From the IMG/VR virus record IMGVR_UViG_2734482782_000005, positions 1-41,225 of that record: a stretch of DNA of 41,225 nt; one strand, written 5' to 3'. The position numbers and the translations under genes were made by a program. How positions within the stretch are numbered: the stretch's first letter is position 1; each line of letters begins with the position of its first letter. The notes under the pieces are model-generated. The model saw nothing but the letters and a program-made list of their open reading frames with translations, did not search any database and was not told where the DNA came from. The stretch comes from a virus. Taxonomy: Duplodnaviria; Heunggongvirae; Uroviricota; Caudoviricetes. Below are positions 1 through 39,536 of the stretch, one piece after another.

Positions 1-1158
1 ATGCTCACCGTTAAGCAGATTGAAGCAGCAAAGCCGAAAGAAAAACCATACCGCCTTCTCGATGGTAATGGCCTGTACCTTTATGTCCCTGTATCCGGGA
101 AAAAGGTATGGCAGCTTCGCTACAAGATTGACGGTAAGGAGAAAATCCTGACCGTCGGAAAATATCCGCTTATGACTTTGCAGGAGGCAAGGGATAAGGC
201 ATGGACTGCGAGGAAAGACATCTCGGCTGGCATCGATCCGGTAAAGGCGAAAAAGGCTTCGTCTAACAACAATTCCTTTAGTGCGATTTACAAGGAATGG
301 TACGAGCACAAGAAGCAAGTCTGGTCAGTAGGCTATGCAACTGAACTTGCAAAAATGTTCGATGACGACATTTTACCTATCATCGGCGGCCTTGAAATTC
401 AGGATATTGAGCCGATGCAACTGCTGGAAGTAATCCGCAGATTTGAAGATCGCGGTGCAATGGAGCGAGCCAACAAAGCCCGCAGAAGATGCGGCGAGGT
501 TTTCCGTTACGCTATTGTCACTGGTAGGGCTAAATATAACCCGGCACCTGACCTTGCTGACGCCATGAAGGGATACCGCAAGAAGAACTTCCCGTTTTTA
601 CCTGCCGACCAGATCTCGGCATTCAACAAAGCACTTGCAACATTTTCAGGAAGTATCGTATCGCTCATTGCGACCAAAGTTTTACGCTACACAGCCCTAA
701 GAACAAAAGAGCTTCGTTCCATGCTATGGAAGAACGTCGATTTTGAAAACAGGATTATCACCATCGACGCCAGTGTGATGAAGGGACGCAAAATTCATGT
801 TGTCCCGATGTCAGACCAGGTGGTTGAACTTCTCACTACACTAAGCTCAATCACTAAACCAGTATCAGAGTTTGTTTTTTCCGGGCGCAACGATAAGAAG
901 AAGCCAATCTGCGAGAACGCGGTATTGCTTGTGATCAAACAAATCGGCTATGAAGGTCTGGAAAGCGGTCACGGATTCAGGCATGAATTCAGCACGATTA
1001 TGAACGAGCACGAATGGCCTGCTGATGCTATTGAAGTGCAACTGGCACATGCCAACGGCGGATCTGTACGCGGGATTTACAACCATGCTCAGTATCTCGA
1101 TAAGCGCAGAGAAATGATGCAGTGGTGGGCGGACTGGATTGATGAAAAGGTGGAGTGA
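1..1158 (+). CDS. intS: Tyrosine-recombinase prophage integrase (IntS-like)
   Basis: 385-aa ORF from ATG at 1; translation matches my recollection of E. coli KplE1/CPS-53 IntS; first gene inside a tRNA-associated prophage. Confidence 0.9.
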   Translation: MLTVKQIEAAKPKEKPYRLLDGNGLYLYVPVSGKKVWQLRYKIDGKEKILTVGKYPLMTLQEARDKAWTARKDISAGIDPVKAKKASSNNNSFSAIYKEWYEHKKQVWSVGYATELAKMFDDDILPIIGGLEIQDIEPMQLLEVIRRFEDRGAMERANKARRRCGEVFRYAIVTGRAKYNPAPDLADAMKGYRKKNFPFLPADQISAFNKALATFSGSIVSLIATKVLRYTALRTKELRSMLWKNVDFENRIITIDASVMKGRKIHVVPMSDQVVELLTTLSSITKPVSEFVFSGRNDKKKPICENAVLLVIKQIGYEGLESGHGFRHEFSTIMNEHEWPADAIEVQLAHANGGSVRGIYNHAQYLDKRREMMQWWADWIDEKVE

Positions 1159-1300
1159 TCCACCTTAACCACTATCGAAGAGCACAAAGCCTTGCAATCC
1201 AGTACAAAACTTTGTTTGTCTCATCAACCATAGCAAGTCATCGATCGATTGAGACTTGGATGATAGACTTCATGCCTTTGATTATTAGCTGATAGAAGAA

Positions 1301-1663
1301 ATGTTAAAACTATTTGCAAAGTACACCTCGATTGGTGTGCTGAACACCCTTATACACTGGGTGGTTTTTGGTGTTTGTATCTATTCCGCGCATACAAACC
1401 AAGCTCTTGCAAACTTCGCAGGTTTTGTTGTGGCTGTGAGTTTTAGCTTCTTCGCAAATGCAAAATTCACATTCAAAGCATCAACTACAACGATGCGCTA
1501 CATGTTATATGTCGGGTTCATGGGAACACTGAGTGCTACTGTTGGATCGGCTGCTGATAGATGTGCACTTCCTCCAATTGTCACTCTTGTCACCTTCTCC
1601 GCCATCAGCTTGGTGTGCGGTTTCGTCTATTCAAAGTTCATTGTCTTTAGGGATGCGAAATGA
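1301..1663 (+). CDS. gtrA: GtrA flippase for bactoprenol-linked glucose (O-antigen modification)
   Basis: 120-aa hydrophobic protein, ATG at 1301, stop overlaps gtrB start (ATGA at 1660); resembles YfdG/GtrA. Confidence 0.9.
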
Positions 1664-2580
1664 AGATATCTCTGGTCGTTCCTGTCTTCAATGAAGAGGA
1701 AGCGATACCAATTTTTTATAAAACGGTACGTGAATTCGAAGAGTTGAAGCCATATGAAGTGGAAATTGTTTTTATAAATGATGGTAGCAAAGACGCTACG
1801 GAGTCAATCATTAACGCTCTGTCCGTTTCAGATCCCCTAGTTGTTCCGCTGTCATTTACACGAAACTTTGGTAAAGAACCAGCATTGTTTGCAGGGTTAG
1901 ACCATGCAACCGGAGATGCTGTAATTCCAATTGATGTTGACCTGCAAGACCCGATTGAGGTTATTCCTCATCTTATTGAAAAGTGGCAGGCAGGTGCTGA
2001 TATAGTGCTTGCTAAACGTTCAGACCGTTCTACTGATAGCCGGCTTAAACGTAAATCTGCTGAATTGTTTTATAAGCTGCATAACAAAATAAGCACCCCT
2101 AAGATCGAGGAAAACGTAGGTGACTTCCGTCTGATGTCACGAGAGGTCGTGGAGAACATCAAACTCATGCCGGAACGCAATCTTTTCATGAAGGGTGTAC
2201 TTAGTTGGGTTGGCGGTCGTACAGATGTCGTTGAATATGCCCGTGCAGAACGCGTTGCAGGAAGAACAAAATTCAACGGATGGAAACTATGGAACTTGGC
2301 GCTTGAGGGGATAACGAGCTTTTCAACCTTCCCTCTGCGCATGTGGACTTACATTGGTCTGTTCGTTGCAGGTGCAGCGTTACTTTACGGGGCATGGATG
2401 ATTTTTGACACTCTCTTTTTTGGGAATGCTGTTAGAGGGTACCCATCACTTCTCGTCTCAATTCTATTTTTAGGCGGCATCCAACTTATCGGCATTGGCG
2501 TTCTTGGAGAGTACATTGGAAGGATTTACGTCGAGGTTAAACAAAGACCCAAATATATATTGAAAGGAATTAAAAAATGA
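1660..2580 (+). CDS. gtrB: GtrB bactoprenol glucosyltransferase (GT2 family)
   Basis: 306-aa ORF with GT2-like N-terminal domain and C-terminal TM helices; translationally coupled to gtrA and gtrC. Confidence 0.9.
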
Positions 2581-4028
2581 TAAACATCAAAATAAAATTA
2601 TTAATTTTGTCCATCATTACTTCCGTTATTGTGTATGGTTATTGCTTATTTAACTTTAGTCTTTCTATAGATGGAGAGTTTTTTGATAATACCATTCACA
2701 CAATATCACTTGGCAGGTGGGGTCATGCCCTGCTTCATCAGTTTATATTACCAGAGCCATACACGCCTTTCTTTTCAGTATTATTATCTTTAGTTATTAT
2801 TGCCATTGCCGCATGGATGGCATCTATTTTTATAACAGAAAATACTCACGAGAGATTGGTTGTTATATTTGGTTTTTTTGCCACGCCGCAACTTGCTTAT
2901 CAATTGCAGTTTACTAACCAGGCAGACACCACAGCTATTGGTATTCTGTTGGTTGTTATATCCGCGATAACATCATTTAAAGCGATGGGTGGTGACAAAT
3001 CATTACTTAATGCAACCATATCTATTGTATGTCTTTGCTGTGCTATATCAATATACCAGTCATTTCTTGTTGTAGCGTTTAGTGTATATGTTGGATTCTT
3101 TATTCTGAGAACAAGAAATAAAGAAAACAATAAATATAAAACATCAATAATTAAATTCTCGTTATATAGCACAGTAATATTCATACTTTCACTTGCATTG
3201 TATTTTATGTTTTTCAAAATAATATTAATTTCGTATGGAGTTGATGATAAGACTGCGGAATATTCAAGATCACAAATGGCGTGGGGTTACAGACAAAATA
3301 GTTATATAATTAATTATCTGTATAACTACACAAAAAACTTTTTGCTTGGAGATACGTTTTTTGGGTTTAGGACGTATATTGTTGGAGTGATTGCTGTAGT
3401 GGTGGTTTTTTTTAACTTAGTATTCAAACGAAACCTAAATAATGCAACATCATGTTTAATGTCACTTGCTTTGGTATTATCTCCTTTAGTTCTTGTTTTT
3501 TATTTCGGAAATAACCAGATGCCACGCACTTACATTTCAATGAGCTTTGTAGTGGCATTTTCAGTTCTGATTATATTCAGAGGCTTGAGTTTAAAGAAAG
3601 AGTTTATTATTATCCCGGTCTTCATGTGCCTTTACTCTACTTATGCAGTATCGGCATTATTTTATTCTGATGATATTGCAAGATCTAGAGATGAGTTTAT
3701 ATCACGAAAGATAGTTTCTGATGCGCAGTCATTAATTAAGCATGGTGAGTCTAGTATTATAACACTTTACTTTCATGGACATATAAATAATGAAAACAGA
3801 TGGAAGTTACGAAACAGTGACACATTTGGAGTGTCTTTCTTTTCTTGGGATAATGGTAACCCTAGAAGAATATGTGCATATATTTCATATTACTCACTAG
3901 CAAAAGTTAGGTGTGAAAAGATATCATCTGGATATGACGCCAACATAGCAATGAAATTGCCGCCATACCCTTACATAGGATATATAAAAAACGAAAACGG
4001 AAAACTAATAATCAATCTTGGTGGGTAA
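2577..4028 (+). CDS. Serotype-specific O-antigen glucosyltransferase (GtrC-type polytopic membrane protein)
   Basis: 483-aa highly hydrophobic ORF, very AT-rich, third gene of gtr operon; ATG 2577 overlaps gtrB stop. Confidence 0.75.
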
Positions 4029-4030
4029 AA

Positions 4031-6064
4031 TTACATAGTTGTACCATCAGCGTATTTCCAAGCTTGAGCCAGTTGATCAAAAAAAACTGGCTTTTTAGTG
4101 TCTATGTTATAGATACTGTGACCGTACCCAAGAAGGTTCTTATTTATAGCGTTTATCTGTGAGGACGTTGCAGCAGTTGGAATGCCAGACCATGCAACAG
4201 TAATTAATATCCAATTACTTCCTGTCCATCTGATGTATGTCCCAGTATCAATTTGGTAGTATATGTGTCCTACAGGTATACCTGTAGGTCTAGCGGAAGA
4301 AAGACCAACAACCTGAAACCCTCTGTCATCAATCCACATTCCAGCCCCTACGTTGGTAATGAACCTCCCAAATGTCACATCATAGTAACTGAAACCGGGA
4401 ATCGCATACCCCGTAAAGCCAGATTTCCAAGAGGCAGAGTTATCAATTGATCTAACTCGAATTGACCTTTTTTCTGCTTCAGTTGCACTCGATGGTGACG
4501 ACGAAGATACCGTGTGAATGGAAACGATATCCACAAGCGTGTTTATTGGTTCTTCGCCACGGAAAATGTACTGGAATCCATCGTAATGACAACCCTGCGA
4601 GTCAATAAATGTCGCCCGAACCCTGTCAGGGCGTCCGTAGTACACGGTAAGCGCATTAGCTGACGCGTAGGCTTCGTTGTAATAGCGTGAACCCTTATCC
4701 TGAATTCTTAGGACGTTTTTATAGTCAACGCCAACGGCTATACCAGCGGTAGTGGTTGTGAACCTGAATTCGTTATCTGAAAAAATCAGGTCGCCCATTT
4801 GCCATGTAGGATTGTCAATTTCATCCTCTGCACCTTGCGCGGAAATCATTATTCCGATTGCAAATGTGCGGCAGCGGTTATCACTGACTTTGAATACATC
4901 TGATTTCTGGTCGTGTCTGTGCGTGAATAGAGCAAAACCATAACCGCCAACTAGGTCATTGTTGTGCAGGTTAACGCGGTGTGTGCCAATGAATTTAAAC
5001 GCGCGTTCAAACGTTGTTTCTGGTGTTTCAGTATTGTAATTGCGCATCACAACACTGTTGTTTTGTACGAATGCGGCGCGGCTAGTTCCTGTCCCATCGG
5101 CAAAACTTGATGCGTAGACTGCATGGCGATCAAGCGGTGCGCCGGCTACACCAAAAATACAGTTGTCGACAGAGATAATCTCACAATCGATAGGGACAGT
5201 ACCATAGCCATAAACACCTGCGCTCCAGTCCTGTGAAGCGAGTTGCTGGAATACGTTGGAGTAACTAGCGCCATAGCACAAGTGAATCTGTGCAGTCACA
5301 GTGTTAACACCAGCACTGATGTTGCGCATTTCTGATCCTTCATAATGCGCATAAACGTTGTTCACAGTAATGCCAACTACAGCACGCCCAACACCACGAA
5401 CTTTTCCGCCGTCAATTTTGACTTTAGTGGTGACGCTTTCGACGCCTGTTCCGTCAAACGTCAGGATCTGGTAGTAGGTGTTTACGTCTGTAGGTGTGAA
5501 GTTAACCCAACCGTCAGCCGTAGATTTGATTGTAATGTCTCTACCATTTAACGATCTGCGAATTGGTGTGTTTATATTCTGTACGTTATCAATGAGAACA
5601 TCAGCACTGTTCTCAAGAGCGGTATCAATAGCCTGTTCAAGACTTCCAGCCTCTGATGTTTTTACAAGACCGCGAACGCCTCCAATGTATGAAAAACCAA
5701 TAGAAGATGAAAGCCTTCCCTCCAGCTGGTCAGGATCGTACTTCAGCACATTCGGAAAATAGAACTGCTGCGCACCATACGCATCGTATACAGCCATTGA
5801 ATGGCCTTGCACAGTTACGAATTTGGCAATCTGTCCGTTATATACCGGGTAACCAGCAGCGTTAATGATGATTGGTTGCGATACAGGAACATGAGAGCCG
5901 TCTTCGTTCTCTACATAAACCTGAATCTGGTTTTCAGGATTTACAGGGTCAGTGTCAATTTTACCGATATAAATTTTGCCATTGGCTACGGCTTTAAAAG
6001 AACGCGCCATAGTGAATAGTTGCGAAGGCATGCTTACCACAACATTTGCGGTGATATCTGACAT
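4031..6064 (-). CDS. Tailspike protein with P22-type N-terminal head-binding domain and a distinct receptor-binding domain
   Basis: Internal ATG at 6064 gives [11 protein letters not shown]..., recalled P22 gp9 N-terminus; GGAG RBS upstream; the rest does not resemble P22 endorhamnosidase; ORF-track start at 6112 is an upstream extension. Confidence 0.85.
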
Positions 6065-6089
6065 TTCATTGCTCCAGACGAATAATATG

Positions 6090-6112
6090 ATGCAACCATG
6101 ATGTGATTGCAT
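6090..6112. promoter_or_regulatory. 23-bp imperfect palindrome (ATGCAA-N11-TTGCAT) in the tailspike promoter region; candidate operator for the adjacent Mnt-like repressor
   Basis: Inverted repeat read directly; lies 26-48 bp upstream of tailspike ATG and upstream of divergent mnt. Confidence 0.3.
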
Positions 6113-6185
6113 ACCGAAATGGTACTATTGAGTATTTATCCAGTAGGTTACGATGCCATTCCACCCAACTGGTGAGGCATCAAGG

Positions 6186-6446
6186 ATGTACAGCAAATAC
6201 GACGAGGCGCAGTTTCACTTGAGACTTCCGCATGAACTCCACGCGAAAATTAAGCAGCGTGCGAAGATGAATAACAGGTCGCTGAACTCAGAGATAATTG
6301 CAGCGATTGAAGAATCATTGGACAAACAAAGCTCTGCATCAGTTTACATTGACGATGCAGAGCGTATGGCAGAACAACAATCTGATATGGTTAAGAAAAT
6401 TGTCTTTGATACGCTCAAGGAGCTATATAAAAAAGACAGCAGCTAA
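6186..6446 (+). CDS. mnt: Mnt-like ribbon-helix-helix repressor (immI-type)
   Basis: Translation from ATG 6186 (MYSKYDEAQFHLRLPHELHAKIKQRAK...NSEII...) resembles P22 Mnt including C-terminal ...VFDTLKELYKK; divergent to tailspike. Confidence 0.75.
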   Translation: MYSKYDEAQFHLRLPHELHAKIKQRAKMNNRSLNSEIIAAIEESLDKQSSASVYIDDAERMAEQQSDMVKKIVFDTLKELYKKDSS

Positions 6447-6535
6447 CTATCAGTTACGGAGGATTTATGCAAAGAGATATGCTGAATATTGCGTTCTACA
6501 TATTTGGTTTTTGCACGTTCCTGGTGTTTGCGAAG

Positions 6536-8815
6536 CTATTCTGACAACGCATCAGACTTGGCACCTTGAGTCAGGGCGTTAATGGCCTTTTGCGCCTGCT
6601 GCATGGCTTTCTCAAACGCTGTTGATCCGCGTGGGGTGTTTGCCATTCGGAGCATTGCATTTCTGAATGGCTCGCTCTCATAGGCGCGAGTAAGAAGTCC
6701 GTAGCTTACCGCTGCGCCAGTTGTCGCCGGGTTCATTGCCGTCCCATATCCGATAATGAACGGGATGGTTTGCTGCCCTGTTGGTGTTGTTACTGCCGCT
6801 TTTGCAGCCTGCTGCGTGGATTGCAGGTAGTTTTTCAATCCTTTCAGATAAGCAGCATCCTGCCCCTTAAATATTATTCCAGTCTGGTTTTGCATGATGT
6901 TAAGCTGCCGAAGGAACTGGTCAGGGGAACCACCTGATTTCTCCATCGCCTTTCCAATGATGCCATTGCGCATTTGCACCCTACCAACACGACCAACTGA
7001 GTTATACAGAGCCTTAATTTCAGATTTGTTCTTGCTGAATAGCATGTTGTTGACAACTTCCGGCGTCAGATCGCCTTTCATGAGAACATTCTTCAGCCTG
7101 GTATTCTTTAGTTTAGCCGCTTCGTCAGCGTAGACGGCATTGGCCTGCTGATATTTACGGAGAGTATCGTTGCCAAGATTCTGACCAATGGCACCATTGA
7201 TATCGTCGGTCATTGCCTTGTAAACGCGCTGAATGGCAGCATCGGAACGGTTTGGTAACACTGGTCGCTCACCCTTCACGTCCATTCTGAACTGGCTGCG
7301 CAGGTCGCTTAATTGCTTCAAATCCAGATTTACAGGACCATCAGGGCCAGCATTGCGAACAAGCTCATCACGATATGACTGAAGTTTTGAAATAGTCTCG
7401 TTATCAGCAACCTTACCAAGCTTCTGCAGGTTAGATATTTCTGTATCAATCTGCTGAATTGCTCGCGCAGGCTGAATGTTTACTCCAGCCATAGCATTCT
7501 GAACCTGCTCCAGTCGATTACCGGCGGCACGACGAATTCCTGATGTTTTCGCTTTAAGGCTGTCAATAACAACAGATGGATCATACTCACCGAATTTATC
7601 AGCAAATCTCTGCACCAACTGGCTTCTCGCTTCCTGTTGCGTTGCTCTCATTCCGCTTGTGCCAGCCAGAGGGATATTTTCTGCTGTAGTCTGCGCCATT
7701 TTTCCGACGCGGGAAGTGGGTTGTAACAGGTCTGTGGTGTGCAGAGGAACGCCTTCACGCTCTGCAAATCTGATAGCTTGCTGTGCTTCTGGCGCGATAG
7801 CACCACGAACGCCACGATAAGCAGCACCTAATCCACGTCCGGCAGCGTTAATAGCACCGCCAGCAAGTACACCAACGCCTAAATCGGTGGCGAGTGCTTC
7901 CGCATCATCTTTCGCACTATTTGCAGCAAGTGATCCAACTGCGTTTTCTGCTAGAAGGCGAGTTGCCCCCTGAGCAATTCGACCAGCAAGTGTTGGTGCC
8001 TGTGCTGCCGCTCTCTCAACGCCAGCAGGAGTGAGGTAAGGCAATGCTTCAGCAAATACCATTCCCTCTGTCGTTTGTGGAGTCAGCGCACCTTGCTGAA
8101 GGCCAAAGTCCTGCTCTAATCCCTGCGTTGTTACTCGTGGTGCTGGGTGATATGTCCCATCGCCAATTCCGAGTTTACCGCCAGCCCAAGCCGCCGCGCT
8201 TGTTACAGCATCGGCAACTGATGCAGGTATGTTTGCCACGTTCACGCCAGCCTGCACCAGTCCGCGACCAGTTTCAGCCGCGGCATTGCCAAGGTCGGAA
8301 ATGAAACCTCCTTGCTGCTGTGGCGCTGCCTGTGTACTTTGCTGTACAGGCTGTTGTGTAGCTTGATTCTTCCTAGGGAGGTATTCATCAGCTTGCTGGT
8401 TGTGCAGACTCTCCGCATATGCAGTGGCATCGTCAGGATTGTCGAACATACCAAGATGCTTTCCCGTCCTCATGAAGTTATCAATAGCTTCATCATCAGA
8501 CATAATGCGACCATCATCACTAACGGTAGGAATCAGCACCTCTCTACCATCTATATTGGTAGACATGCTCCGCACAGTGCTAATGCTGCCATCAGAGTTT
8601 TTAACAACAGGCCGATTGTGAATGTCAATATTACCCTTCTCTAGCAGACCTCTAGGGTAAGCAGAGTAAAACGCTTGTTTTGCCTGCTCTGCATTTTCTC
8701 CGGCTTGCGGGGCAACGACTTCATTGAAGTATTGTTCCTGAGCCTGCGCTTTTTGTTCTGGTGCTAACGCCTGATACTGTGGAGAGGCGATAACATCTTT
8801 CCATGCTTTAGCCAT
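6536..8815 (-). CDS. DNA-ejection (injection) protein, P22 gp16-like
   Basis: 759-aa ORF; position after gp20 in P22 gene order; N-terminus resembles gp16. Confidence 0.75.
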   Translation of the reverse strand: MAKAWKDVIASPQYQALAPEQKAQAQEQYFNEVVAPQAGENAEQAKQAFYSAYPRGLLEKGNIDIHNRPVVKNSDGSISTVRSMSTNIDGREVLIPTVSDDGRIMSDDEAIDNFMRTGKHLGMFDNPDDATAYAESLHNQQADEYLPRKNQATQQPVQQSTQAAPQQQGGFISDLGNAAAETGRGLVQAGVNVANIPASVADAVTSAAAWAGGKLGIGDGTYHPAPRVTTQGLEQDFGLQQGALTPQTTEGMVFAEALPYLTPAGVERAAAQAPTLAGRIAQGATRLLAENAVGSLAANSAKDDAEALATDLGVGVLAGGAINAAGRGLGAAYRGVRGAIAPEAQQAIRFAEREGVPLHTTDLLQPTSRVGKMAQTTAENIPLAGTSGMRATQQEARSQLVQRFADKFGEYDPSVVIDSLKAKTSGIRRAAGNRLEQVQNAMAGVNIQPARAIQQIDTEISNLQKLGKVADNETISKLQSYRDELVRNAGPDGPVNLDLKQLSDLRSQFRMDVKGERPVLPNRSDAAIQRVYKAMTDDINGAIGQNLGNDTLRKYQQANAVYADEAAKLKNTRLKNVLMKGDLTPEVVNNMLFSKNKSEIKALYNSVGRVGRVQMRNGIIGKAMEKSGGSPDQFLRQLNIMQNQTGIIFKGQDAAYLKGLKNYLQSTQQAAKAAVTTPTGQQTIPFIIGYGTAMNPATTGAAVSYGLLTRAYESEPFRNAMLRMANTPRGSTAFEKAMQQAQKAINALTQGAKSDALSE

Positions 8816-10203: not shown

Positions 10204-10212
10204 GATTACCCC

Positions 10213-30959: not shown

Positions 30960-31078
30960 AAACAGATACCAAACGAGATGGGTTTGGCGGTGATGTGAAT
31001 TGCAGCTGCAACGACAGCAACCAGAAGATCAGCACCTGGCGCATCACCACCAAAGCCATTTCACATGAGGAAAATATC

Positions 31079-31387: not shown

Positions 31388-31389
31388 AA

Positions 31390-31668: not shown

Positions 31669-31670
31669 TC

Positions 31671-31694
31671 AACCCGTCCAAGACGGGTTTTTTA
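31671..31694 (+). terminator. Intrinsic terminator (tL1-like)
   Basis: CCCGUC-caa-GACGGG hairpin + UUUUUUAUU. Confidence 0.65.
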
Positions 31695-31725
31695 TTGCAA
31701 GCAAACCACTTATTTGAGATGAGAT

Positions 31726-32196: not shown

Positions 32197-32298
32197 TACG
32201 AATAAGCACTGTGTATTCATTCCAACGAGTGAATACACGGAGCAATGTCGCTCGTAACTAAACAGGAGCCGACTTGTTCTGATTATTGGAAATCTTCT

Positions 32299-32326
32299 TT
32301 GCCCTCCTATGTGAGGGCAATTTTTT
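32299..32326 (+). terminator. Intrinsic terminator (tL2-like)
   Basis: UUGCCCUC-cuaugu-GAGGGCAA hairpin + UUUUUU. Confidence 0.7.
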
Positions 32327-32338
32327 GACGGAGGATAT

Positions 32339-33307
32339 ATGAGTGAAGTAACAGATTTAGTTGTTATTGAAAAAGCAAATGCAATGACTGTATTTCAGTC
32401 TGCCGACCAGATTGAAGAAATCCTTCAAAAGGTTGAACGTGAAGTTATGTCCTTTGTGCCTGATATCACAACGGCAAAGGGCAGAAAGGAGATCGCTTCT
32501 CTGGCGTATAAAGTTGCGCAGACGAAAACATATCTCGATGGTCTTGGCAAAGACCTTGTTGCTGAACTGAAGGAAATTCCAAAGCTAATTGATGCCAACC
32601 GCAAGACAGTGCGTGATCGACTTGATGAGCTGAAAGCCAAGGCGCGCCAGCCTCTTACTGATTATGAGGAAGAACAGGCGCGGATTAAAGCCGAAGAAGA
32701 AGCTAAGGCAGCAGCTGAAGCTCTCGCAAAGCAAATTGAGTCTGACCATGAAATAGCGATTTTGATGGATCGCGAATTTGACCGCCAAAGAGAAGAGGAA
32801 AGACTCAAAGCGGAGCAGGAAAAGCGAGAGCATGAAGAACGCTTAAAAAGAGAAGCTGAAGAGAAAGCCAGAGCAGAAGCCGAAGCAAAGGCAAAAGCCG
32901 AAATTGAAGCAGCAGCAAGGCGAGAAGCAGAAGCTAAGGCCGCAGCGGAACGTGCAGAGCGTGAACGCATTGAAGCCGAGCAACGAGCACAGCGCGAAGC
33001 AAAAGAGGCAGCAGAACGAGCTGAAAGAGAAAAGCAGGCGGCAATTGAAGCAGAACGCCGAAAAGCACAGGAGGAGGCTGAACGAATCCGGCGCGAGGCT
33101 GAAGCAAAAGAGCAAGCCAGAATAGCAGAAGAAAAAAGAATCAAGGACGAAGAAGAGCGTAGAGCAAAGGATAAAGCTCACCGGAAAGAAGTAAATAACA
33201 AAATACTTGCTGACCTTATCAAGGTTGGCGCATCAGAAGATGTTGCTAAAAATATCATAACAGCCATCGTAAAAGGCGAAGTATTCGCAACAAAAATAAC
33301 CTACTAA
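32339..33307 (+). CDS. Hypothetical coiled-coil protein with long E/A/K/R-rich repeat region
   Basis: 322-aa ORF, GGAGG RBS; central ~150 aa of KAEAE/RAERE-type heptad-like repeats flanked by globular ends. Confidence 0.6.
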   Translation: MSEVTDLVVIEKANAMTVFQSADQIEEILQKVEREVMSFVPDITTAKGRKEIASLAYKVAQTKTYLDGLGKDLVAELKEIPKLIDANRKTVRDRLDELKAKARQPLTDYEEEQARIKAEEEAKAAAEALAKQIESDHEIAILMDREFDRQREEERLKAEQEKREHEERLKREAEEKARAEAEAKAKAEIEAAARREAEAKAAAERAERERIEAEQRAQREAKEAAERAEREKQAAIEAERRKAQEEAERIRREAEAKEQARIAEEKRIKDEEERRAKDKAHRKEVNNKILADLIKVGASEDVAKNIITAIVKGEVFATKITY

Positions 33308-33330
33308 TAAACCAACATAAGGAACCACCC

Positions 33331-33462
33331 ATGATTTACGCAATCGCGGGAGGCGCTCGCATGGGTGCCTTCCAACTAAATGAATCTTTACTTGAACGAA
33401 TCACCCGTAAATTACGTGACGGATGGAAAAGAGTTGAGGTCTTATTATGCGCAATGAAATAG
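33331..33462 (+). CDS. cIII: CIII-like FtsH inhibitor
   Basis: Manually translated 43-aa ORF; ...ESLLERITRKLRDGWKR... matches recalled lambda CIII core; AGGAA RBS. Confidence 0.6.
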   Translation: MIYAIAGGARMGAFQLNESLLERITRKLRDGWKRVEVLLCAMK

Positions 33463-33599
33463 CCATCAATCACCAGATGCTTCGTGCGGCACAAAACAAA
33501 GCAGTAATAGCCCGATTTATTGGTGATTCCAAAATGTGGCTTGAAGCAAATAAAGCGATGAAATCAGCTATCAACCTTCCGTGGTATCGCAGGAAATGA
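33447..33599 (+). CDS. kil: Kil-like small protein (host division inhibitor)
   Basis: Manually translated 50-aa ORF; ...IARFIGDSKMWLEA... resembles recalled lambda Kil; overlaps cIII end. Confidence 0.45.
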   Translation: MRNEIAINHQMLRAAQNKAVIARFIGDSKMWLEANKAMKSAINLPWYRRK

Positions 33600-33754
33600 G
33601 TTTTACAGATAACTGGTCAGACGAAGAATTCATTCGTCAGATGAAAGATTTAATCGGTAACGAAGGAGATATTCATGTCACTTGCAACCACAGTGAAGGA
33701 GAGCAAGTTACAGAGACGCATGTACACGCAGAAAGCTCTCTGGTATCGCCATAA
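33596..33754 (+). CDS. Small hypothetical ORF
   Basis: Manually translated 52-aa ORF with ATGA overlap to kil. Confidence 0.3.
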   Translation: MSFTDNWSDEEFIRQMKDLIGNEGDIHVTCNHSEGEQVTETHVHAESSLVSP

Positions 33755-33853
33755 TGGTGACCGCGAAGGAATGCGGGTATGCCTTAATTTGTCCCGAGTC
33801 GAAGTATTAAATCAGCGTTATTTCCTTGGGCCGTGTCCATTCTGAGGTGAATT

Positions 33854-34561
33854 ATGGATTTGAACAAATTCGATGAGCCATTCAGCCCTGAAGATATCGA
33901 ATGGCGAATACAGCAAAGCGGTAAAACACGCGATGGCAAGGTGTGGGCTATGGTGCTGGCTTATGTCACGAACCGGGCAATCATGAAACGCCTGGACGAT
34001 GTTTGCGGCAAAGCAGGATGGCGCAATGAATACCGCGATATTCCCAACAACGGCGGCGTTGAATGCGGCATATCAATAAAGATTGATTCCGAATGGGTAA
34101 CCAAATGGGATGCTGCTGAAAACACGCAGGTAGAAGCCGTCAAAGGTGGTCGTTCCGGTGCAATGAAGCGCGCTGCCGTTCAGTGGGGAATCGGTCGGTA
34201 TCTGTATAACCTTGAGGAAGGTTTCGCACAAACATCTCTCGATAAAAAGCAGGGGTGGCACAGGGCAAAACTGAAGGATGGAACAGGATTTTACTGGTCC
34301 CCTCCATCGCTGCCGGGATGGGCAATGCCAGCATCTGGAAATCAACCATCACCAGAAAATACCAACCAGAAATCTCCATCGGTTGACTGCGAACAAATCC
34401 TGAAAGACTTCAGCGATTATGCGTCAACAGAAACTGACAAGAAAAAACTCATCGAGCGTTATCAGCGTGACTGGCAATTAATGGCTGGCAACGAGGAGGC
34501 GCAGGCTAAATGCGTTCAGGTAATGAACATCAGAGTTAACGAACTAAAACAGGCGGCATAA
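33854..34561 (+). CDS. Rad52-family single-strand annealing recombinase (Sak-like)
   Basis: 235 aa; ...GVECGISIKIDSEWVTKWDAAEN...GAMKRAAVQWGIGRYLYNLE... typical of Rad52/Sak; directly upstream of ssb. Confidence 0.7.
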   Translation: MDLNKFDEPFSPEDIEWRIQQSGKTRDGKVWAMVLAYVTNRAIMKRLDDVCGKAGWRNEYRDIPNNGGVECGISIKIDSEWVTKWDAAENTQVEAVKGGRSGAMKRAAVQWGIGRYLYNLEEGFAQTSLDKKQGWHRAKLKDGTGFYWSPPSLPGWAMPASGNQPSPENTNQKSPSVDCEQILKDFSDYASTETDKKKLIERYQRDWQLMAGNEEAQAKCVQVMNIRVNELKQAA

Positions 34562-35035
34562 ATGGCAAGCAGAGGCGTAAATAAGGTGATCATTATTGGT
34601 CGCCTTGGGCATGATCCAGAAATCAGATATTCACCATCAGGAACGGCATTTGCAAACCTTACAGTTGCTACGTCAGAACAATGGCGTGATAAGCAAACTG
34701 GAGAGCAAAAGGAGCAGACGGAGTGGCACCGCGTGGTAATGAGCGGGAAACTGGCAGAAATTGCCAGCGAATATCTGCGAAAAGGCTCTGAGGTTTATCT
34801 TGAAGGCAAATTGCGGACAAGAAAATGGCAGGATCAAAGCGGACAGGATCGGTTCACTACCGAAGTTATCGTGGGCGTTGGTGGAACCATGCAAATGCTT
34901 GGTGGCAAGCAAGGAGGAAATGAACAGTCTTCACCTCAGCGAAATAACGGTCAGCAACAAAGACAGCAACCTCAGCAGCAATGGAATCACAGCGAACCAC
35001 CTATGAACTTCGACGATTCGGATATTCCGTTCTAG
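34562..35035 (+). CDS. ssb: Single-stranded DNA-binding protein
   Basis: 157 aa; OB-fold N-terminus, G/Q-rich linker, acidic C-terminal tail ...DDSDIPF. Confidence 0.9.
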
Positions 35036-35044
35036 GAGCTGAAT

Positions 35045-35524
35045 ATGAAAATCTGCTCAAGATGCCATCAACAGAAGGAAGAAAGGGACTTTCAAATCAG
35101 AAGAGCATCCAGAGATGGATTAACTGCCGCTTGCCGGGCTTGCCTGGCTGAATACGACAAAGAGCGCGCGGGATTGCCACATCGAGTATCAGCAAGGAGA
35201 GAATATCAATCATCGGAACGCGGCAGAGAACGGTGTAACGCAGCCAAAAAGCGGTTCATTCAGAGCAACCCATGGAAAAGAAAAGCCCACATCATCGTGG
35301 GTAATTTTTTGCGCGACGGTAAGCTAATCCGACCACCACAATGTGAGTGCTGCGGATCAGAATGTAAACCACAGGCGCACCACTGCGACTACAGCAAACC
35401 AACCGATGTGATGTGGCTCTGCAAGTCATGTCATGTCGAGTGGCACAAACATAACAAACCTATCTACCCAGACGAGGAGACAGTAACTCTCCCTTTCCCT
35501 CGTCACGCTATTCACGCAATTTAA
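35045..35524 (+). CDS. HNH nuclease-domain protein
   Basis: 159 aa; C-terminal CECCG...AHHCDY...WLCKSCHVEWHKH HNH/zinc-finger motif. Confidence 0.6.
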   Translation: MKICSRCHQQKEERDFQIRRASRDGLTAACRACLAEYDKERAGLPHRVSARREYQSSERGRERCNAAKKRFIQSNPWKRKAHIIVGNFLRDGKLIRPPQCECCGSECKPQAHHCDYSKPTDVMWLCKSCHVEWHKHNKPIYPDEETVTLPFPRHAIHAI

Positions 35525-35532
35525 GGACTTAC

Positions 35533-36081
35533 ATGAATCACTTGATGGTTGACCTTGAAACAATGGGCAACGGGCCATACTCGCCAGTTATTTCTATTGG
35601 GGCGGTATTCTTTGACCCGAATACCGGAGAAACAGGAGAAGAGTTCTCGGTAAATATCTCGCTTGAGTCATCAATGCGATATCGAGCGCGTCCTGACGCT
35701 TCAACGATTTTATGGTGGATGGAACAGAGTGAAGAAGCCAGAAAATCGCTAACCAGCAACACTCAGGAGCTTTCAACGGCTCTTTCATGGTTATCTGAAT
35801 TCATCATAAAGAACGCTAACCACAAATTCGTTCAGGTTTGGGGGAATGGGGCATCATTTGACTGCGTTATTCTCCGCAACAGTTATTCGCTGACAGGGCA
35901 GCCAGTTCCGTGGCAGTGGTGGAATGACCGCGACGTAAGAACAATCGTCGAACTTGGGAAGGTAATAGGATTCGACCCTAAGCGAGATATGCCATTCAAA
36001 GGAACTCGCCACAACGCGCTTGATGATGCCATTCACCAAGCCAAATACGTTTCAGCGATCTGGAAAAAGTTAGCTAAATAA
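35533..36081 (+). CDS. DEDDh 3'-5' exonuclease (DnaQ-like fold)
   Basis: 182 aa; motifs VDLETMG, WGNGASFD, HNALDDA. Confidence 0.7.
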   Translation: MNHLMVDLETMGNGPYSPVISIGAVFFDPNTGETGEEFSVNISLESSMRYRARPDASTILWWMEQSEEARKSLTSNTQELSTALSWLSEFIIKNANHKFVQVWGNGASFDCVILRNSYSLTGQPVPWQWWNDRDVRTIVELGKVIGFDPKRDMPFKGTRHNALDDAIHQAKYVSAIWKKLAK

Positions 36082-36097
36082 TCAACAGGAGAAAACC

Positions 36098-36391
36098 ATG
36101 CCAGCGCCTCTGTATGGTGCGGACGACGCGCGCCGCTGTTCCGGCAATTCCGTATCGGAGGTGCTGGATAAATTCAGAAAAAACTACGATCGGATAATGT
36201 CGCTACCGCAGGAAACGAAAGAGGAAAAGGAATTTCGCCACTGCATATGGCTTGCAGAGAAAGAAGAACGCGAGCGAATTTACCAGACATCAATCCGACC
36301 ATTCCGCAAAGCCACATATACCCACTTCCCTGAAATTGACCCGCGCCTGCGTAATTACCGCTCACGCTATGGCGCTATCAGTAATGACTGA
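36098..36391 (+). CDS. Hypothetical early protein
   Basis: 97-aa ORF with AGGAG RBS. Confidence 0.5.
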
Positions 36392-36401
36392 GGAATTTAC
36401 C

Positions 36402-36566
36402 ATGAGAGGACTTGCATACAATCCCGGCATTCTTCCGGCAGAAATGATTATTCGCCAACGCGTAAAGCCAATGCCATCGAGAGAGGAATTGCTTAAGAGA
36501 AATTCTTTTCCATCAGTAAATCAAAACAAATATCTGAATGCAATGTGGCGGAGTGGGAAGAAATGA
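36402..36566 (+). CDS. Small hypothetical early protein
   Basis: 54-aa ORF from internal ATG 36402 with GAGG RBS; ORF-track start 36252 is an extension. Confidence 0.35.
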
Positions 36567-36994
36567 AACAAATGACACTAATTGAGATGGATGGATTTCT
36601 GAAAGGTAAATGCATCCCACGAGATTTAAAGGTTAACGAAACAAACGCTGAATATCTTGTCCGTAAGTTCGGTGAACTTGAATCAAAACTGGAAACGGCG
36701 TTGCGGGAGTGTCGTTCTGCTGGAATCACGATTGATAACCTTGAGGCTAAATGCGCGAAGATGGCTGCTGAAAATACATCGCTTAAGCAATCTGAGAAGG
36801 AATTTAATGACTTTTGTCGTGAGGAGTTTAGCGAATGGGAAGATGATGTTACTGAAACTCCAGTTACCGATGCTTTCCTGGCTGAAGTGCGGGCGCAGGG
36901 GGTAGAGATGTTTGCTGACCATCTGTTGTGCCCAGACCTTGATGACACTATCCGTGACTTTGCTGCCCAGCTTCGCAAAGGAGGCAACCAGTGA
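36563..36994 (+). CDS. Hypothetical acidic early protein
   Basis: ATG 36563 overlapping upstream stop (ATGA); 143 aa. Confidence 0.5.
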
Positions 36995-37536
36995 GTGTAA
37001 CGGTTGAAAAGATTGATGTGTTGTCATTCGTTATAACCGGTGCAGAGCGACTAGATCCGGTTCGAGTGATGATTGAAAACTACGAACCTGGTAAGGGAAG
37101 AATCACCATCACCTGCTACGGAAAAGCGTGGACTGCGGCTTGGTTTGCTATGGGCGGTGATGATGTGCAGACGTTCATTAAGCGGGTCAGCAACGAGTAT
37201 CTAATCGGCTATTTCGACCCTCAACTGCGAAGCACGGTCGACGATGACAACGATGCAAATCTGCTTTTCGTGAAGTCAGAAATCATAAAGTTACGAAGAG
37301 AGAGAGAAATCGACGCGGTACAGGCTCGCGAAATGTGGGACGAGTCGGAAAACGCCGATGACGTAAAAGAAAGCTGCTGTTGTTTCGGTGTCGGTAACAA
37401 ACTGCTGAATCTCTTTGGTGATGATCCGTGGTATGCAGGCTGGCCAACGGCACCAAACCCGAAATACCAGTATCTGGAACGCGTACTTAATGCAGTGAGA
37501 GACGGTCTTAAGCAAATAGAGAAGGTGGAACCATGA
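36991..37536 (+). CDS. Hypothetical early protein
   Basis: 181 aa; GTG start 36991 with AAGGAGG RBS 7 nt upstream. Confidence 0.5.
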   Translation: MSVTVEKIDVLSFVITGAERLDPVRVMIENYEPGKGRITITCYGKAWTAAWFAMGGDDVQTFIKRVSNEYLIGYFDPQLRSTVDDDNDANLLFVKSEIIKLRREREIDAVQAREMWDESENADDVKESCCCFGVGNKLLNLFGDDPWYAGWPTAPNPKYQYLERVLNAVRDGLKQIEKVEP

Positions 37537-37832
37537 CTGTATGTCTTATTGATAAACGTCGACGTGGGCAACAAATACCATCTGTTGAAATGCCGAATCA
37601 CACATGGTTTTGCGTACTTGATATCGATGGTATGGATACGTTGGTTGACACTCGTCATTACTGCGATACCGCAACAGCTACTCCGGCGAAAGCAAAGAAA
37701 ATGGCTGCTCTGATAGAAAACTGGACTCCACCTGATGGTTGGTGCAATGGGAATGATCGAGATTGGCATGAAAAAATGAAGGGCTATATCTGCGATTTTT
37801 TACGTAAATGCAACGGATTCAGGGTGATGTGA
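37533..37832 (+). CDS. Hypothetical Cys/Trp-rich early protein
   Basis: 99-aa ORF, ATG 37533 overlapping upstream stop. Confidence 0.5.
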   Translation: MTVCLIDKRRRGQQIPSVEMPNHTWFCVLDIDGMDTLVDTRHYCDTATATPAKAKKMAALIENWTPPDGWCNGNDRDWHEKMKGYICDFLRKCNGFRVM

Positions 37833-37833
37833 C

Positions 37834-38586
37834 ATGAGCAAGATTGACTATCAGGCACTGCGTGAAAAGGCAGAAAAAGCAACGTGTGGTGAGTGGTCGC
37901 TCGAATATGGAGAGGGCCGATTTGATGGTGATGATGCGCTAATTCATCGTGAAGTTGCTGGATATATTCCCATTTGCAGAATTGAAGGAGCGCATCCAGA
38001 AAGCGGTTTCGATGAAGATTTCCAAATAGAACAGCAGGCCAATGCTGAATTCATCGCCGCAGCCAATCCGGCTACCGTCTTGGCGCTGCTGGGCGAGCTG
38101 GAAACAGCAAAAAAGCGCATAGCAGAACTGGAAGCCGAACCTGTAAGCCAAACTTGCAAGTTGCCAGTTAATACACCTTGCCAAGATGCGCCAGCCCATA
38201 TCTGGCTGCAAACGGCTGGAGTATGGCCAGAAGATGGCGAGTTAAGCGAATTAACGTGGTGCAGCCACAATCAGCACCATGATGACACGCTATATGTTCG
38301 AGCTGACCTTGTGAATGGCAACTATCCGGTAACTCCGGATAGTTGGATAAGCTGTAGTGAGCGAATGCCGGGATATCCGATAGAGGTTCTTGTTGCATTT
38401 AAATCTGATGCCGATGGCGAGCCATGTCTTGATACGGGAGTTGCAATTCTATTTCCTGACGGAAAGTGGCGTGGGGGTGGAGTTTTTTATGTGATGAATG
38501 GGGATCGAAAATATCAATACAGAGAATGTGTTAGAGAAGTAACCCACTGGATGCCTCTACCAGAACCGCCGCAGGAGATGAAGTAA
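37834..38586 (+). CDS. Ead/Ea22-like early protein (possible DUF551-type C-terminal domain)
   Basis: 250 aa; N-terminal MSKIDYQALREKAEKATCGEWS...ANAEFIAAANPATVLALLGELE... typical of lambdoid Ead/Ea22-like proteins as recalled. Confidence 0.55.
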   Translation: MSKIDYQALREKAEKATCGEWSLEYGEGRFDGDDALIHREVAGYIPICRIEGAHPESGFDEDFQIEQQANAEFIAAANPATVLALLGELETAKKRIAELEAEPVSQTCKLPVNTPCQDAPAHIWLQTAGVWPEDGELSELTWCSHNQHHDDTLYVRADLVNGNYPVTPDSWISCSERMPGYPIEVLVAFKSDADGEPCLDTGVAILFPDGKWRGGGVFYVMNGDRKYQYRECVREVTHWMPLPEPPQEMK

Positions 38587-38864
38587 TGGACTCCTTTGCG
38601 AAATATACGATTATTGACTGGATTGCCTTCCTTCAGGTTTTGCTCATCTGGTTTTATATGGCTTACAGGAGTGGACAGTGGATTGTCAGTGTAGCCTGTA
38701 GCAAGGGATGGCGTTGGTGGAACAGAAAGAATAAAAAAGCACTGGCATTGGATTCGTTTTACGAAGCATTCAATCTTAACAGCCTTCAGCCTGGTTCTGT
38801 CATTGTAGTCACCACTCAAAGCGGCATGACCATTCAGATTCATAAACCAAAAGAGGAAAAATGA
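38586..38864 (+). CDS. Hypothetical small membrane protein
   Basis: 92-aa ORF with one hydrophobic segment; start overlaps upstream stop. Confidence 0.45.
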   Translation: MDSFAKYTIIDWIAFLQVLLIWFYMAYRSGQWIVSVACSKGWRWWNRKNKKALALDSFYEAFNLNSLQPGSVIVVTTQSGMTIQIHKPKEEK

Positions 38865-38950
38865 TGTGGCCTATATGTGTTAATTGCGGACGGATGTGCC
38901 TATCTGGATGGTGCCGAAGGTGCGACAAATGCACGAAGAAAAGACAATAA
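38861..38950 (+). CDS. Putative 29-aa cysteine-rich peptide (zinc-ribbon-like CxxC...CxxC)
   Basis: Manually translated MMWPICVNCGRMCLSGWCRRCDKCTKKRQ; ATGA overlap with upstream gene. Confidence 0.3.
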   Translation: MMWPICVNCGRMCLSGWCRRCDKCTKKRQ

Positions 38951-39022
38951 CAATCCTCGCACTCGCGGGGATTTCTTTTATCTGAACTCGCTACGGCGAG
39001 TTTTGTTTTATGGAGATGATAA

Positions 39023-39190
39023 ATGCACTTCCAAGTCACAGGTGAATGGAATGGAGAACCATTCAACAGAGTTATCGAAGCAGAGAACATCAACGACTGC
39101 TATGACCACTGGATGCTGTGGGCGCAGATAGCACATGCAGACGTAACCAATATTCGAATTGAAGAACTGAAAGAACACCAAGCCGTCTGA
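39023..39190 (+). CDS. Small hypothetical protein upstream of torI
   Basis: Manually translated 55-aa ORF (MHFQVTGEWNGEPFNRVIEAENINDCYDHWMLWAQIAHADVTNIRIEELKEHQAV), GGAG RBS, stop inside terminator hairpin. Confidence 0.4.
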   Translation: MHFQVTGEWNGEPFNRVIEAENINDCYDHWMLWAQIAHADVTNIRIEELKEHQAV

Positions 39191-39206
39191 TGGCGGTTTT
39201 TTATTG
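39183..39206 (+). terminator. Intrinsic terminator at end of early-left operon
   Basis: CCGUC-UGAU-GGCGG hairpin (one U.G) + UUUUUUAUU. Confidence 0.6.
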
Positions 39207-39212
39207 CCTGAT

Positions 39213-39228
39213 TTGCAGGTTCGATTCC
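39213..39228 (+). other. 16-nt tRNA T-arm-like fragment (TTGCAGGTTCGATTCC) upstream of torI
   Basis: Canonical T-stem/T-loop GCAGG-TTCGATT-CC; contiguous in tRNA register with the 3'-end core at 39522-39536. Confidence 0.5.
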
Positions 39229-39247
39229 CTATTCGGAGATAGCACTC

Positions 39248-39448
39248 ATGCAACACGAACTACAGCCTGATTCCCTGGTTGATTTGAAATTCATCATGGC
39301 TGATACTGGCTTCGGTAAAACCTTCATCTACGACCGTATTAAGTCCGGCGACCTGCCAAAAGCCAAAGTTATCCACGGGCGAGCAAGATGGTTATATCGT
39401 GACCATTGTGAATTCAAAAATAAGCTCTTAAGCCGCGCCAATGGGTAA
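39248..39448 (+). CDS. torI: Excisionase-like recombination directionality factor TorI
   Basis: 66 aa, MQHELQPDSLVDLKFIMADTGFGKTFIYDRIKSGDLPKAKVIHGRARWLYRDHCEFKNKLLSRANG, matches recalled E. coli TorI; GGAG RBS. Confidence 0.85.
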   Translation: MQHELQPDSLVDLKFIMADTGFGKTFIYDRIKSGDLPKAKVIHGRARWLYRDHCEFKNKLLSRANG

Positions 39449-39521
39449 AATAGCGGGTAAAATATTTCTCACATCTAAAAAATACCATTCCAATCAATCC
39501 CCTGCCGCTTCAAGTAGATGT

Positions 39522-39536
39522 CTGCAGGGGACACCA
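39522..39536 (+). other. Putative attR core: 15-nt copy of a tRNA 3' end (CTGCAGGGGACACCA)
   Basis: Sequence ends in CCA preceded by acceptor-stem-like AGGGGAC; matches recalled 3' end of E. coli argW and the KplE1 core repeat; host-like DNA follows. Confidence 0.6.

Follow-up and report, generated by a model that had tools for sequence, protein, structure and literature searches.

Sequence composition of an apparently complete, mosaic Sf6/HK620-like prophage at the argW site

The 41,225-nucleotide (nt) stretch analyzed here (positions 1 to 41,225 of IMG/VR record IMGVR_UViG_2734482782_000005; hereafter the window) contained one lambdoid prophage and 1.7 kb of host flank. The prophage map was reversed relative to convention, with int and gtrABC on the plus strand (positions 1 to 4028), the late, nin, replication, and PR-side genes on the minus strand (4031 to 29954), and cI and the PL operon on the plus strand (30066 to 39448). 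The G+C fraction was 0.44 to 0.52 throughout except in the gtrC region (0.32), and no tRNA genes were present in the window. Fifty-nine open reading frames (ORFs) of the window (58 from the prophage plus cscB) were compared with all ORFs of Sf6, HK620, lambda, P22, Bas106, and a prophage of Escherichia coli strain 401651, and key genes were additionally compared with the A2 prophage, phage 683R2, and E. coli LR-28. The element is very probably a temperate podovirus of mosaic makeup that belongs to the P22-like group (genus Lederbergvirus, Sf6/HK620 subgroup); it spans about 39.7 kb, is apparently complete, and is integrated at the 3' end of argW.

The left end of the window was occupied by int (1 to 1158, plus strand), predicted to encode an IntS-type tyrosine integrase of 385 amino acids (aa) with 99% aa identity to K-12 IntS and 98% to Sf6 gp16 and HK620 Int. 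At the opposite end of the prophage, an arrangement that is a feature of the argW module, lay torI/xis (39248 to 39448, plus strand), coding for a TorI-type recombination directionality factor 100% identical to K-12 TorI, HK620 HkaC, and Sf6 gp18. The attR arm that followed (torI and arm together, 39248 to 39537) was 96 to 98% identical in nt sequence to K-12, Sf6, and HK620 and ended in a 16-nt core. The published core of the K-12 element KplE1, also called CPS-53, is CTGCAGGGGACACCAT (PMC2951348); its single occurrence in the window, CTGCAGGGGACACCAg at 39522 to 39537, was mismatched at the last base. The right boundary is exact, because homology to Sf6, HK620, and K-12 CPS-53 ends at this core. 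Since the window starts at the int ATG, attL and argW fall outside it, and attL was read on a public contig (L020) that had 0 mismatches to window positions 1 to 10028 and encoded an identical GtrC. This contig carried mlaA, yfdC, and tRNA-Arg(CCU); a perfect core, located 176 bp ahead of int, formed part of the tRNA 3' end, and the 176-bp stretch was 97.7% identical to the K-12 attL/PintS region. Two copies of the 16-nt core delimit the element, the one at attL lying within the 3' end of argW. With the left core on the contig and the right core in the window, the element therefore measures about 39.7 kb from core to core, a length bracketed by the genome sizes of HK620 (38.3 kb), Sf6 (39.0 kb), and P22 (41.7 kb). 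A preliminary description of this DNA had placed the prophage at 1 to 39536; its right boundary stands, but the left end lies with attL and argW, 176 bp upstream of the window.

Long, near-identical lambdoid segments can mislead short-read assemblers, and no record covering at least 80% of either prophage half was found among 50,697 phage records or complete E. coli genomes, two points that would fit a chimeric assembly drawn from at least two lambdoid prophages of one strain. Such a chimera is nevertheless most improbable: the independent contig agreed with the window at every base of the first 10,028 bp, a stretch that takes in the joints between flank and int, gtrC and tailspike, and mnt and gp16; the gene order was canonical throughout with no function duplicated or missing, and a matching att core stood at both ends.

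The host flank contained cscB (39978 to 41225, minus strand), coding for the sucrose permease of the csc locus and identical (100% aa) to the "oligosaccharide MFS transporter" of strain 401651, where cscK, cscA, and cscR come next. The right flank of the prophage (39538 to 41225; 22870 to 27117 on contig L007) was thus a csc locus composed of cscB, cscK, cscA, and cscR, not dsdC/dsdX as in K-12, and the argW island of the host strain is therefore of the csc type. A csc-linked argW prophage was also carried by two assemblies labelled "DH5alpha" (NZ_CP026085.1 and NZ_CM135829.1), whose matches had the same identity, coverage, span (22,021 bp), and piece count as those of E. coli W (NC_017664 and NC_017635). 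These labels are probably mistaken, as K-12 has only the 10-kb CPS-53 beside dsdC.

The virion and packaging operon (6536 to 20482, minus strand) was full length in comparison with Sf6, HK620, the A2 prophage, or phage 683R2. Its ORFs were predicted to encode TerS (20042 to 20482; 146 aa), TerL (18633 to 20045; 100% aa identity to Sf6), portal (16504 to 18630; 99%), scaffold (15606 to 16490; 99%), coat (14323 to 15594; 99%), HkbT (14095 to 14280), gp4 (13638 to 14120), gp10 (12211 to 13629), the tail needle gp26 (11363 to 12211; 86%), gp14 (10908 to 11363), gp7 (10213 to 10905), gp20 (8815 to 10203), and gp16 (6536 to 8815; 759 aa). All 13 members of the P22-order morphogenetic set (terS, terL, portal, scaffold, coat, gp4, gp10, gp26, gp14, gp7, gp20, gp16, and tailspike) were present at full length on the minus strand between 4031 and 20482. 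Across 10.6 kb of the virion and packaging region, nt identity to Sf6 was 96.6%. Portal and scaffold were about 32% identical in aa sequence to those of P22, and coat and TerL had no match among the P22 ORFs. The virion and packaging genes, described earlier as P22/Sf6 type, can be assigned to the Sf6/HK620 type, with coat, portal, and TerL 99 to 100% identical to the Sf6 proteins.

Three proteins of this operon departed from Sf6 over part of their length. TerS shared only its C-terminal 31 aa with Sf6 and was 99% identical to TerS of the A2 prophage and 97% identical to that of phage 683R2. The N-terminal 152 aa of gp16 were not of Sf6 origin; 759-aa homologs with 100% coverage were found in Salmonella, Citrobacter, and Enterobacter, and the possibility that the 759-aa ORF is a fusion artefact was rejected on this ground. 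The gp20 protein resembled Sf6 over 236 aa, and the A2 copy matched it from end to end at 99% identity. Judged from these alignments, TerS, gp16, and gp20 are recombinant but whole. Residues 1 to 115 of TerS (window 20131 to 20486), where the DNA-binding domain would be expected, were unrelated to the TerS proteins of Sf6 and HK620, and this divergent N terminus suggests that TerS recognises another kind of pac site. In the record of phage vB_EcoP-683R2 (ON470594), this gene bears the label "HNH homing endonuclease," which looks like a misannotation.

Small late genes and the lysis cassette (20485 to 22807, minus strand) comprised ORFs for a DUF2560 protein (20485 to 20727), Sf6 gp66-like (20831 to 21211) and gp65-like (21450 to 21602) proteins, Rz (21590 to 22027; 97% identical to Sf6, 90% to P22, and 58% to lambda), an intact Rz1 (about 21643 to 21828), R (22024 to 22500; 99% aa identity to lambda), and S (22484 to 22807; 99% to lambda). 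A lambda-type Q gene (23241 to 23864, minus strand) preceded the late promoter PR' (23198 to 23170, minus strand; TTGACT-17-TAAATT) and, downstream of it, a terminator with a 13-bp stem (23136 to 23108, minus strand); the Q-qut region was 96 to 97% identical in nt sequence to lambda and HK620. The late leader (22808 to 23240) combined this lambda-type Q/qut with an absence of tRNA genes, whereas the Sf6 and Bas106 late leaders hold tRNA-Asn and tRNA-Thr beside a phage 21-type Q. Further along the minus strand were ninI (23861 to 24526), ninH (24504 to 24710), ninG (24707 to 25318), ninF (25311 to 25481), and ninE (25478 to 25660). Q and ninE to ninI were 97% identical to lambda in nt sequence. 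The set Q, S, R, and Rz had been called lambda type as a whole; this holds for Q, S, and R but not for Rz, which is of the Sf6/P22 type, and the lambda assignment of ninE to ninI was borne out.

The remainder of the nin region, also on the minus strand, contained a full-length Dam-family N6-adenine methyltransferase gene (25657 to about 26184 or 26244; Pfam Dam, E = 3e-64), a complete ninB with a different N-terminal allele (26181 to 26609), an HNH endonuclease gene (26611 to 27105; HNH_3/AP2), a 93-nt lambda/P22-type ninB 5' fragment (27106 to 27198), ninA (about 27198 to 27275), and a Ren-like gene (27272 to 27562). The HNH gene is inserted at a ninB mosaic joint, with the in-frame relic upstream and the whole ninB downstream, and the arrangement (window 26181 to 27216) recurs at 99% identity in E. 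coli 401651. Sf6 has only the C-terminal half of the Dam methylase as an ORF, apparently the remains of a broken gene, and K-12 YfdM represents a fragment of a related gene with 34% identity.

ORFs predicted to function in replication encoded a DnaC/IstB-like helicase loader (27559 to 28452, minus strand; Pfam IstB_IS21) and an O-like initiator (28455 to 29300, minus strand; Pfam Phage_rep_O), with 94 to 100% aa identity to the replication proteins of phage Bas106. Four ori iterons (28852 to 28946), spaced at about 24 bp and each containing a TGTCTC...GAGACA dyad, lay inside the O-like gene. The O-like protein matched lambda O over its N-terminal 115 aa only (58%), and its partner was the DnaC/IstB-like ATPase, not lambda P. 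The cII ORF (29333 to 29629, minus strand) was 44% identical to lambda cII. The earlier assignment of O and cII to the lambda type is thus valid only in part.

The immunity region (29333 to 30879) comprised cII, nutR (29694 to 29728, minus strand), cro (29739 to 29954, minus strand), cI (30066 to 30725, plus strand), a cI terminator (30756 to 30777), and PL (30851 to 30879; TTGACT-17-TACTAT). Three A(G/A)TAC-N5-GTAyT dyads each at OR (29983, 30017, and 30042) and OL (30805, 30838, and 30863) were located by script with one mismatch allowed and represent putative operators; an inverted-repeat search at seed 6 found no operator dyads. The repressor was 71% identical to lambda cI overall and 37% identical to P22 C2. 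Its C-terminal domain was about 98% identical to that of lambda cI, with the Ala-Gly cleavage site and the Ser and Lys catalytic residues kept, and SOS induction is therefore expected. The helix-turn-helix domain was unrelated to lambda cI and P22 C2 and belonged to the CP-933H/Stx1-phage immunity type; the cII-cro-cI block was 92 to 98% identical in nt sequence to phages annotated with CP-933H-type repressors, Stx1 phages, 683R2, and Dewey. The proposal of a P22 C2-like repressor is accordingly not tenable. The cI ORF fell short of lambda cI by 14 aa and of the PGAP call in strain 401651 by 12 aa, and an N-terminal truncation was considered and rejected: the helix-turn-helix was complete from residue 10 (Pfam), a Shine-Dalgarno sequence (AAGGA) stood ahead of the two candidate start codons (ATG at 30066 and at 30072), and the three putative OR operators occupied the 111 bp between cI and cro.

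The nutL site (30926 to 30959, plus strand), with boxA GCTCTTTAA and boxB GCGCTGACAAAGCGC, preceded the N gene (31079 to 31387, plus strand). N was 67% identical to P22 gp24, with which it shared the arginine-rich motif (ARM) GNAKTRRHERRRKLAIERD, and boxA, the left boxB, and the right boxB (ACCGCCGACAACGCGGT) were identical to those of P22 nutL and nutR, in agreement with the P22-type N and nut boxB originally proposed. The N gene of a second contig, L019 (3636 to 3998), compared with that of the window, had a GRRRERRA-type ARM and a P22-like C terminus (LPDVALYAAGYR..ITAR). This pairing indicates that N proteins are themselves mosaic and have recombined within the gene, where the RNA-binding half meets the presumed RNA polymerase-contacting half. 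Accessory and recombination genes of the PL operon followed (31726 to 39190, plus strand): orf156 (31726 to 32196), an Sf6 gp33-like gene (32339 to 33307), intact cIII (33331 to 33462) and kil (33447 to 33599), erf (33854 to 34561), ssb (34562 to 35035), an Sf6 gp26-like gene (35045 to 35524), an Rv2179c-like exonuclease gene (35533 to 36081), abc2 (36098 to 36391), a DUF2737 gene (36402 to 36566), and ea-type genes up to 39190.

Between the integrase and virion genes lay an O-antigen glucosylation cassette (1301 to 4028, plus strand) composed of gtrA (1301 to 1663), gtrB (1660 to 2580), and gtrC (2577 to 4028). The gtrA and gtrB products were 97% and 90% identical in aa sequence to YfdG and YfdH. 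GtrC matched Pfam GtrII (E = 2e-25) and had a counterpart of the same length and 99% identity in E. coli LR-28; no similarity to YfdI was detectable (tblastn, E ≤ 0.01). The three genes had been regarded as homologs of yfdG, yfdH, and yfdI, which is correct for gtrA and gtrB but not for gtrC. The tailspike gene (4031 to 6064, minus strand; 677 aa) encoded a P22 gp9-type N-terminal head-binding domain (Pfam PF09008 Head_binding, residues 17 to 129, E = 1.9e-67) joined to a divergent receptor-binding domain, and E. coli LR-28 contained a 97.5% identical protein over the full 677 aa. An orphan Mnt-like repressor gene (6186 to 6446, plus strand; 86 aa; Pfam Arc and Repressor_Mnt; 49% identity to P22 Mnt) sat between gp16 and the tailspike gene, with arc and ant absent beside it. 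The 121-bp divergent spacer contained an ATGCAA...TTGCAT dyad, and the repressor may control a Pant-like promoter reading into the tailspike gene.

Taken across the prophage, each of the packaging, head, tail, ejection, lysis, Q, nin, replication, cII, cro, cI, N, and recombination genes had an end-to-end homolog of the same length. The small genes cIII, kil, Rz1, Sf6 gp30-like, and hkaI were intact, hkaB was split by integration, as expected of a gene spanning attP, and no insertion sequence (IS) element was present in the prophage. The ninB 5' fragment was the only relic; the nin region is dispensable in lambda, so this relic should not affect viability. The statement that no genes are obviously truncated is therefore accurate for essential genes and requires amendment for the ninB fragment, and apparent intactness survived careful alignment for frameshifts and truncations. 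The attR core, ori iterons, PR' and its terminator, PL, terminators, operator dyads, and nut sites were all present. Genes sieA, sieB, arc, ant, ral, a lambda/P22-type xis, and the Sf6 tRNAs were looked for in the prophage and none was present; these are dispensable accessories or are replaced by analogs. The prophage appears intact in gene content, full-length status, cis sites, and junctions, and by analogy with its relatives all parts would be expected to work together.

In a life cycle drawn from homology to studied phages, the LexA-like cI would bind the three dyads at each of OR and OL and hold lysogeny until SOS-induced cleavage allowed PL and PR to fire. P22-type N would then act at the P22-type nut sites in early antitermination, the O-like initiator and DnaC-like loader would replicate the genome from the four ori iterons, and lambda-type Q would switch on PR'. 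The Sf6-type terminase, portal, scaffold, and coat would carry out headful DNA packaging, S, R, Rz, and Rz1 would lyse the cell, and excision at the 16-nt cores would be carried out by IntS with TorI. During lysogeny, gtrABC would glucosylate the O-antigen recognised by the tailspike and thereby block superinfection.

Several observations weigh against a complete, functional phage. The attL site was read on a second assembly outside the window, although with 0 mismatches over 10,028 bp; no single phage or complete E. coli genome record covered at least 80% of either half of this mosaic; the N-terminal 115 aa of TerS and 152 aa of gp16 are unlike Sf6, although the TerS type recurs in vB_EcoP-683R2; and missense, promoter, or packaging-site defects would be invisible to sequence comparisons. 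The element might instead be an intact-looking but functionally defective or domesticated prophage, perhaps non-inducible or particle-less and kept for gtrABC seroconversion and exclusion. Sequence integrity is no proof of function, the exact mosaic was absent from the 50,697 phage records, recent recombination points fall inside the gp16, gp20, and TerS genes, and the Mnt-like repressor without arc or ant suggests module decay near the tailspike gene. This explanation is rather unlikely: no essential gene was truncated, no IS element interrupted the prophage, no function was missing, every cis-acting site looked for was found, and each of the recombinant proteins had full-length relatives of the same architecture.

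Whole-prophage alignment confirmed a mosaic of lambda, P22/Sf6, and KplE1-type modules. By blastn, Sf6 covered 24.2 kb of the window (mostly 95 to 99% nt identity), HK620 16.3 kb (mostly 91 to 98%, with some segments at 79 to 85%), P22 10.0 kb (mostly 70 to 85%), and lambda 5.3 kb (Q and ninE to ninI at 97%, S-R at 93%, and the cI 3' half at 94%). Every module recurred elsewhere at 92 to 100% identity. Sf6 (AF547987; Lederbergvirus Sf6) shared the integrase, the TorI-type directionality factor, the attP core, virion, packaging, and lysis genes that were nearly all 96 to 100% identical in aa sequence (the gp26 tail needle excepted), the erf-ssb-gp26 recombination block (98% nt), and the same nin genes. 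It differed in having the oac O-acetylase in place of gtrABC, another tailspike receptor domain, 434-type immunity, a lambda-type N, the phage 21-type Q with two tRNAs, a DnaB-type helicase, and IS911 in ninG, whereas the window had another TerS N terminus, a longer gp16, an intact Dam methylase, the HNH gene, and a Nun-like gene. HK620 (AF335538), CUS-3, Kapi1, vB_EcoP-683R2, IME10, and Bas106 shared the argW recombination module, head genes, and lambdoid layout; 683R2 was close in TerS type (97%) and immunity region (97.8% nt), and Bas106 in replication and early-left genes. Each of these phages differed in tailspike, O-antigen cassette, immunity, N or Q type, and accessory genes. The prophage is thus a new exact mosaic and an ordinary further member of the well-populated Sf6/HK620-like argW prophages.

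The bracketing of a full phage genome by int, gtrA, and gtrB on the left and torI on the right is as the preliminary description reported, and it is these genes that favor reading the prophage as a full-length version, or ancestor model, of KplE1/CPS-53, from which KplE1 would have arisen by internal deletion. IntS (99%), YfdG (97%), YfdH (90%), and TorI (100%) have close counterparts in K-12, and the att core, argW site, and gene order at both ends are identical. Beyond these four, only 40 aa of YfdS had a counterpart among the 18 CPS-53 features; the other 13 (yfdI, yodE, tfaS, yfdK, yfdL, yfdM to yfdR, yfdT, and ypdJ) had no tblastn match in the window (E ≤ 0.01), YfdM showing only a weak, partial 34% blastp match to the Dam methylase at the ORF level. 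CPS-53 covered 3.0 kb of the window by blastn (1 to 2584 at 90%, 39182 to 39536 at 96%, and a weak 105-bp match at 73%). The KplE1 tail-fiber-assembly proteins TfaS and YfdK matched lambda at 36 to 37% aa identity, and YfdO was also a weak lambda homolog; none of the three had a homolog in the four near-complete P22-like phage genomes compared, and the KplE1 body therefore does not come from a podovirus of this kind. A deletion cannot yield genes that the ancestor lacks, so KplE1 is not a deletion derivative of this genome type, and descent of KplE1 from such a phage, as first suggested, is very unlikely.

The link to KplE1 is limited to the int/torI/att recombination module and gtrAB. Shared features are IntS, TorI, the 16-nt att core, the argW site, the attL/PintS region (97.7% nt on the public contig), and YfdG/YfdH, whereas KplE1 has its own gtrC (YfdI), interior genes without homologs in the window, and dsdC, not csc, on its right flank. 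KplE1 is 10.2 kb long and has no repressor (PMC2951348). The recombination module is conserved in intact HK620, Sf6, CUS-3, and other argW prophages, and related argW phages that share it are viable (PMC2951348, PMC3509656, PMC8787464); the Kapi1 paper makes the same point on attP (PMC8787464). The int/TorI/att relationship to KplE1 has been known since 2007 to 2012.

Directly 3' of N lay an ORF of 92 aa (31390 to 31668, plus strand), followed by a strong terminator (31671 to 31689, plus strand). It matched PHROG 5632, "Nun-like transcription termination factor" (E = 1.5e-29), and was 30% identical to HK022 Nun (E = 4e-10). The predicted protein ends in ...VVNHAHQRNPKKKW, and its C-terminal VVNHAHQRNPxKKW was identical to Nun at 13 of 14 positions. 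The KKW of this motif corresponds to K106, K107, and W108 of Nun, which are needed for arrest (PMC4496710). The two proteins are alike in the C-terminal arrest motif, an N-terminal arginine-rich motif, and location in the PL operon; they differ in length (about 109 aa for Nun versus 92 aa) and in the ARM itself (RDNSRNRRREARK in the window protein versus SRDRRRIARWEKRIAY in Nun). The HK022 record has no N-gene annotation, whereas the window ORF adjoins a functional-looking N; HK022 is known to lack N. No promoter for lysogenic expression of the Nun-like gene was detected.

Relatives of the Nun-like protein were few. A protein search among approximately 5.8 billion proteins returned 11, all annotated as hypothetical, and a DNA search found the gene in 33 of 5,426 complete E. 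coli genomes. A tblastn search of 50,697 phage records returned no match, a result that is not evidence of absence since the low-complexity filter probably masked the Arg/Glu/Lys-rich query. In all five lambdoid contexts examined, the Nun-like gene began 2 to 8 nt after N, and the contexts other than that of the window represented three distinct prophage types. Homologs were also observed at 4001 to 4279 in contigs L012, L016, L017, and L019, after N wherever the context reached upstream. The Nun-like ARM was conserved (RDNSRNRRRE). In the three other contexts, the partner N had a similar ARM of the GRRRERRA type, and the nutL boxB combined a GAAA tetraloop with a stem of 5 bp, (N)GGCU-GAAA-AGCC(N). 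Neither a GAAA-tetraloop boxB nor a lambda boxB was found in the window. In this prophage, the P22-type N/nut system would be a replacement for the original one, and because the GAAA boxB is absent here, the Nun-like protein would have only foreign phages as targets and would serve in nut-specific exclusion; where it is natively paired, it could be a competitor of N on transcripts of its own phage. Tentatively, and with doubt outweighing confidence, these ORFs may represent an undescribed family of Nun-type transcription-arrest factors genetically paired with N. A review calls the exclusion specificity of Nun unique, and no paper describing Nun homologs outside HK022 was found in the literature searched.

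As one more mosaic in the well-populated Sf6/HK620-like argW group, the prophage carries modest weight in itself. It corrects the idea of KplE1 as simply a deleted Sf6-like phage, and, as an apparently inducible, seroconverting phage in which gtrABC and the tailspike form a defined pair, it has potential as a practical reagent. Only the Nun-like gene could lead to a new line of inquiry: a conserved pair of N and Nun-like genes would allow the coexistence of arrest and antitermination factors with similar RNA-binding motifs to be tested.

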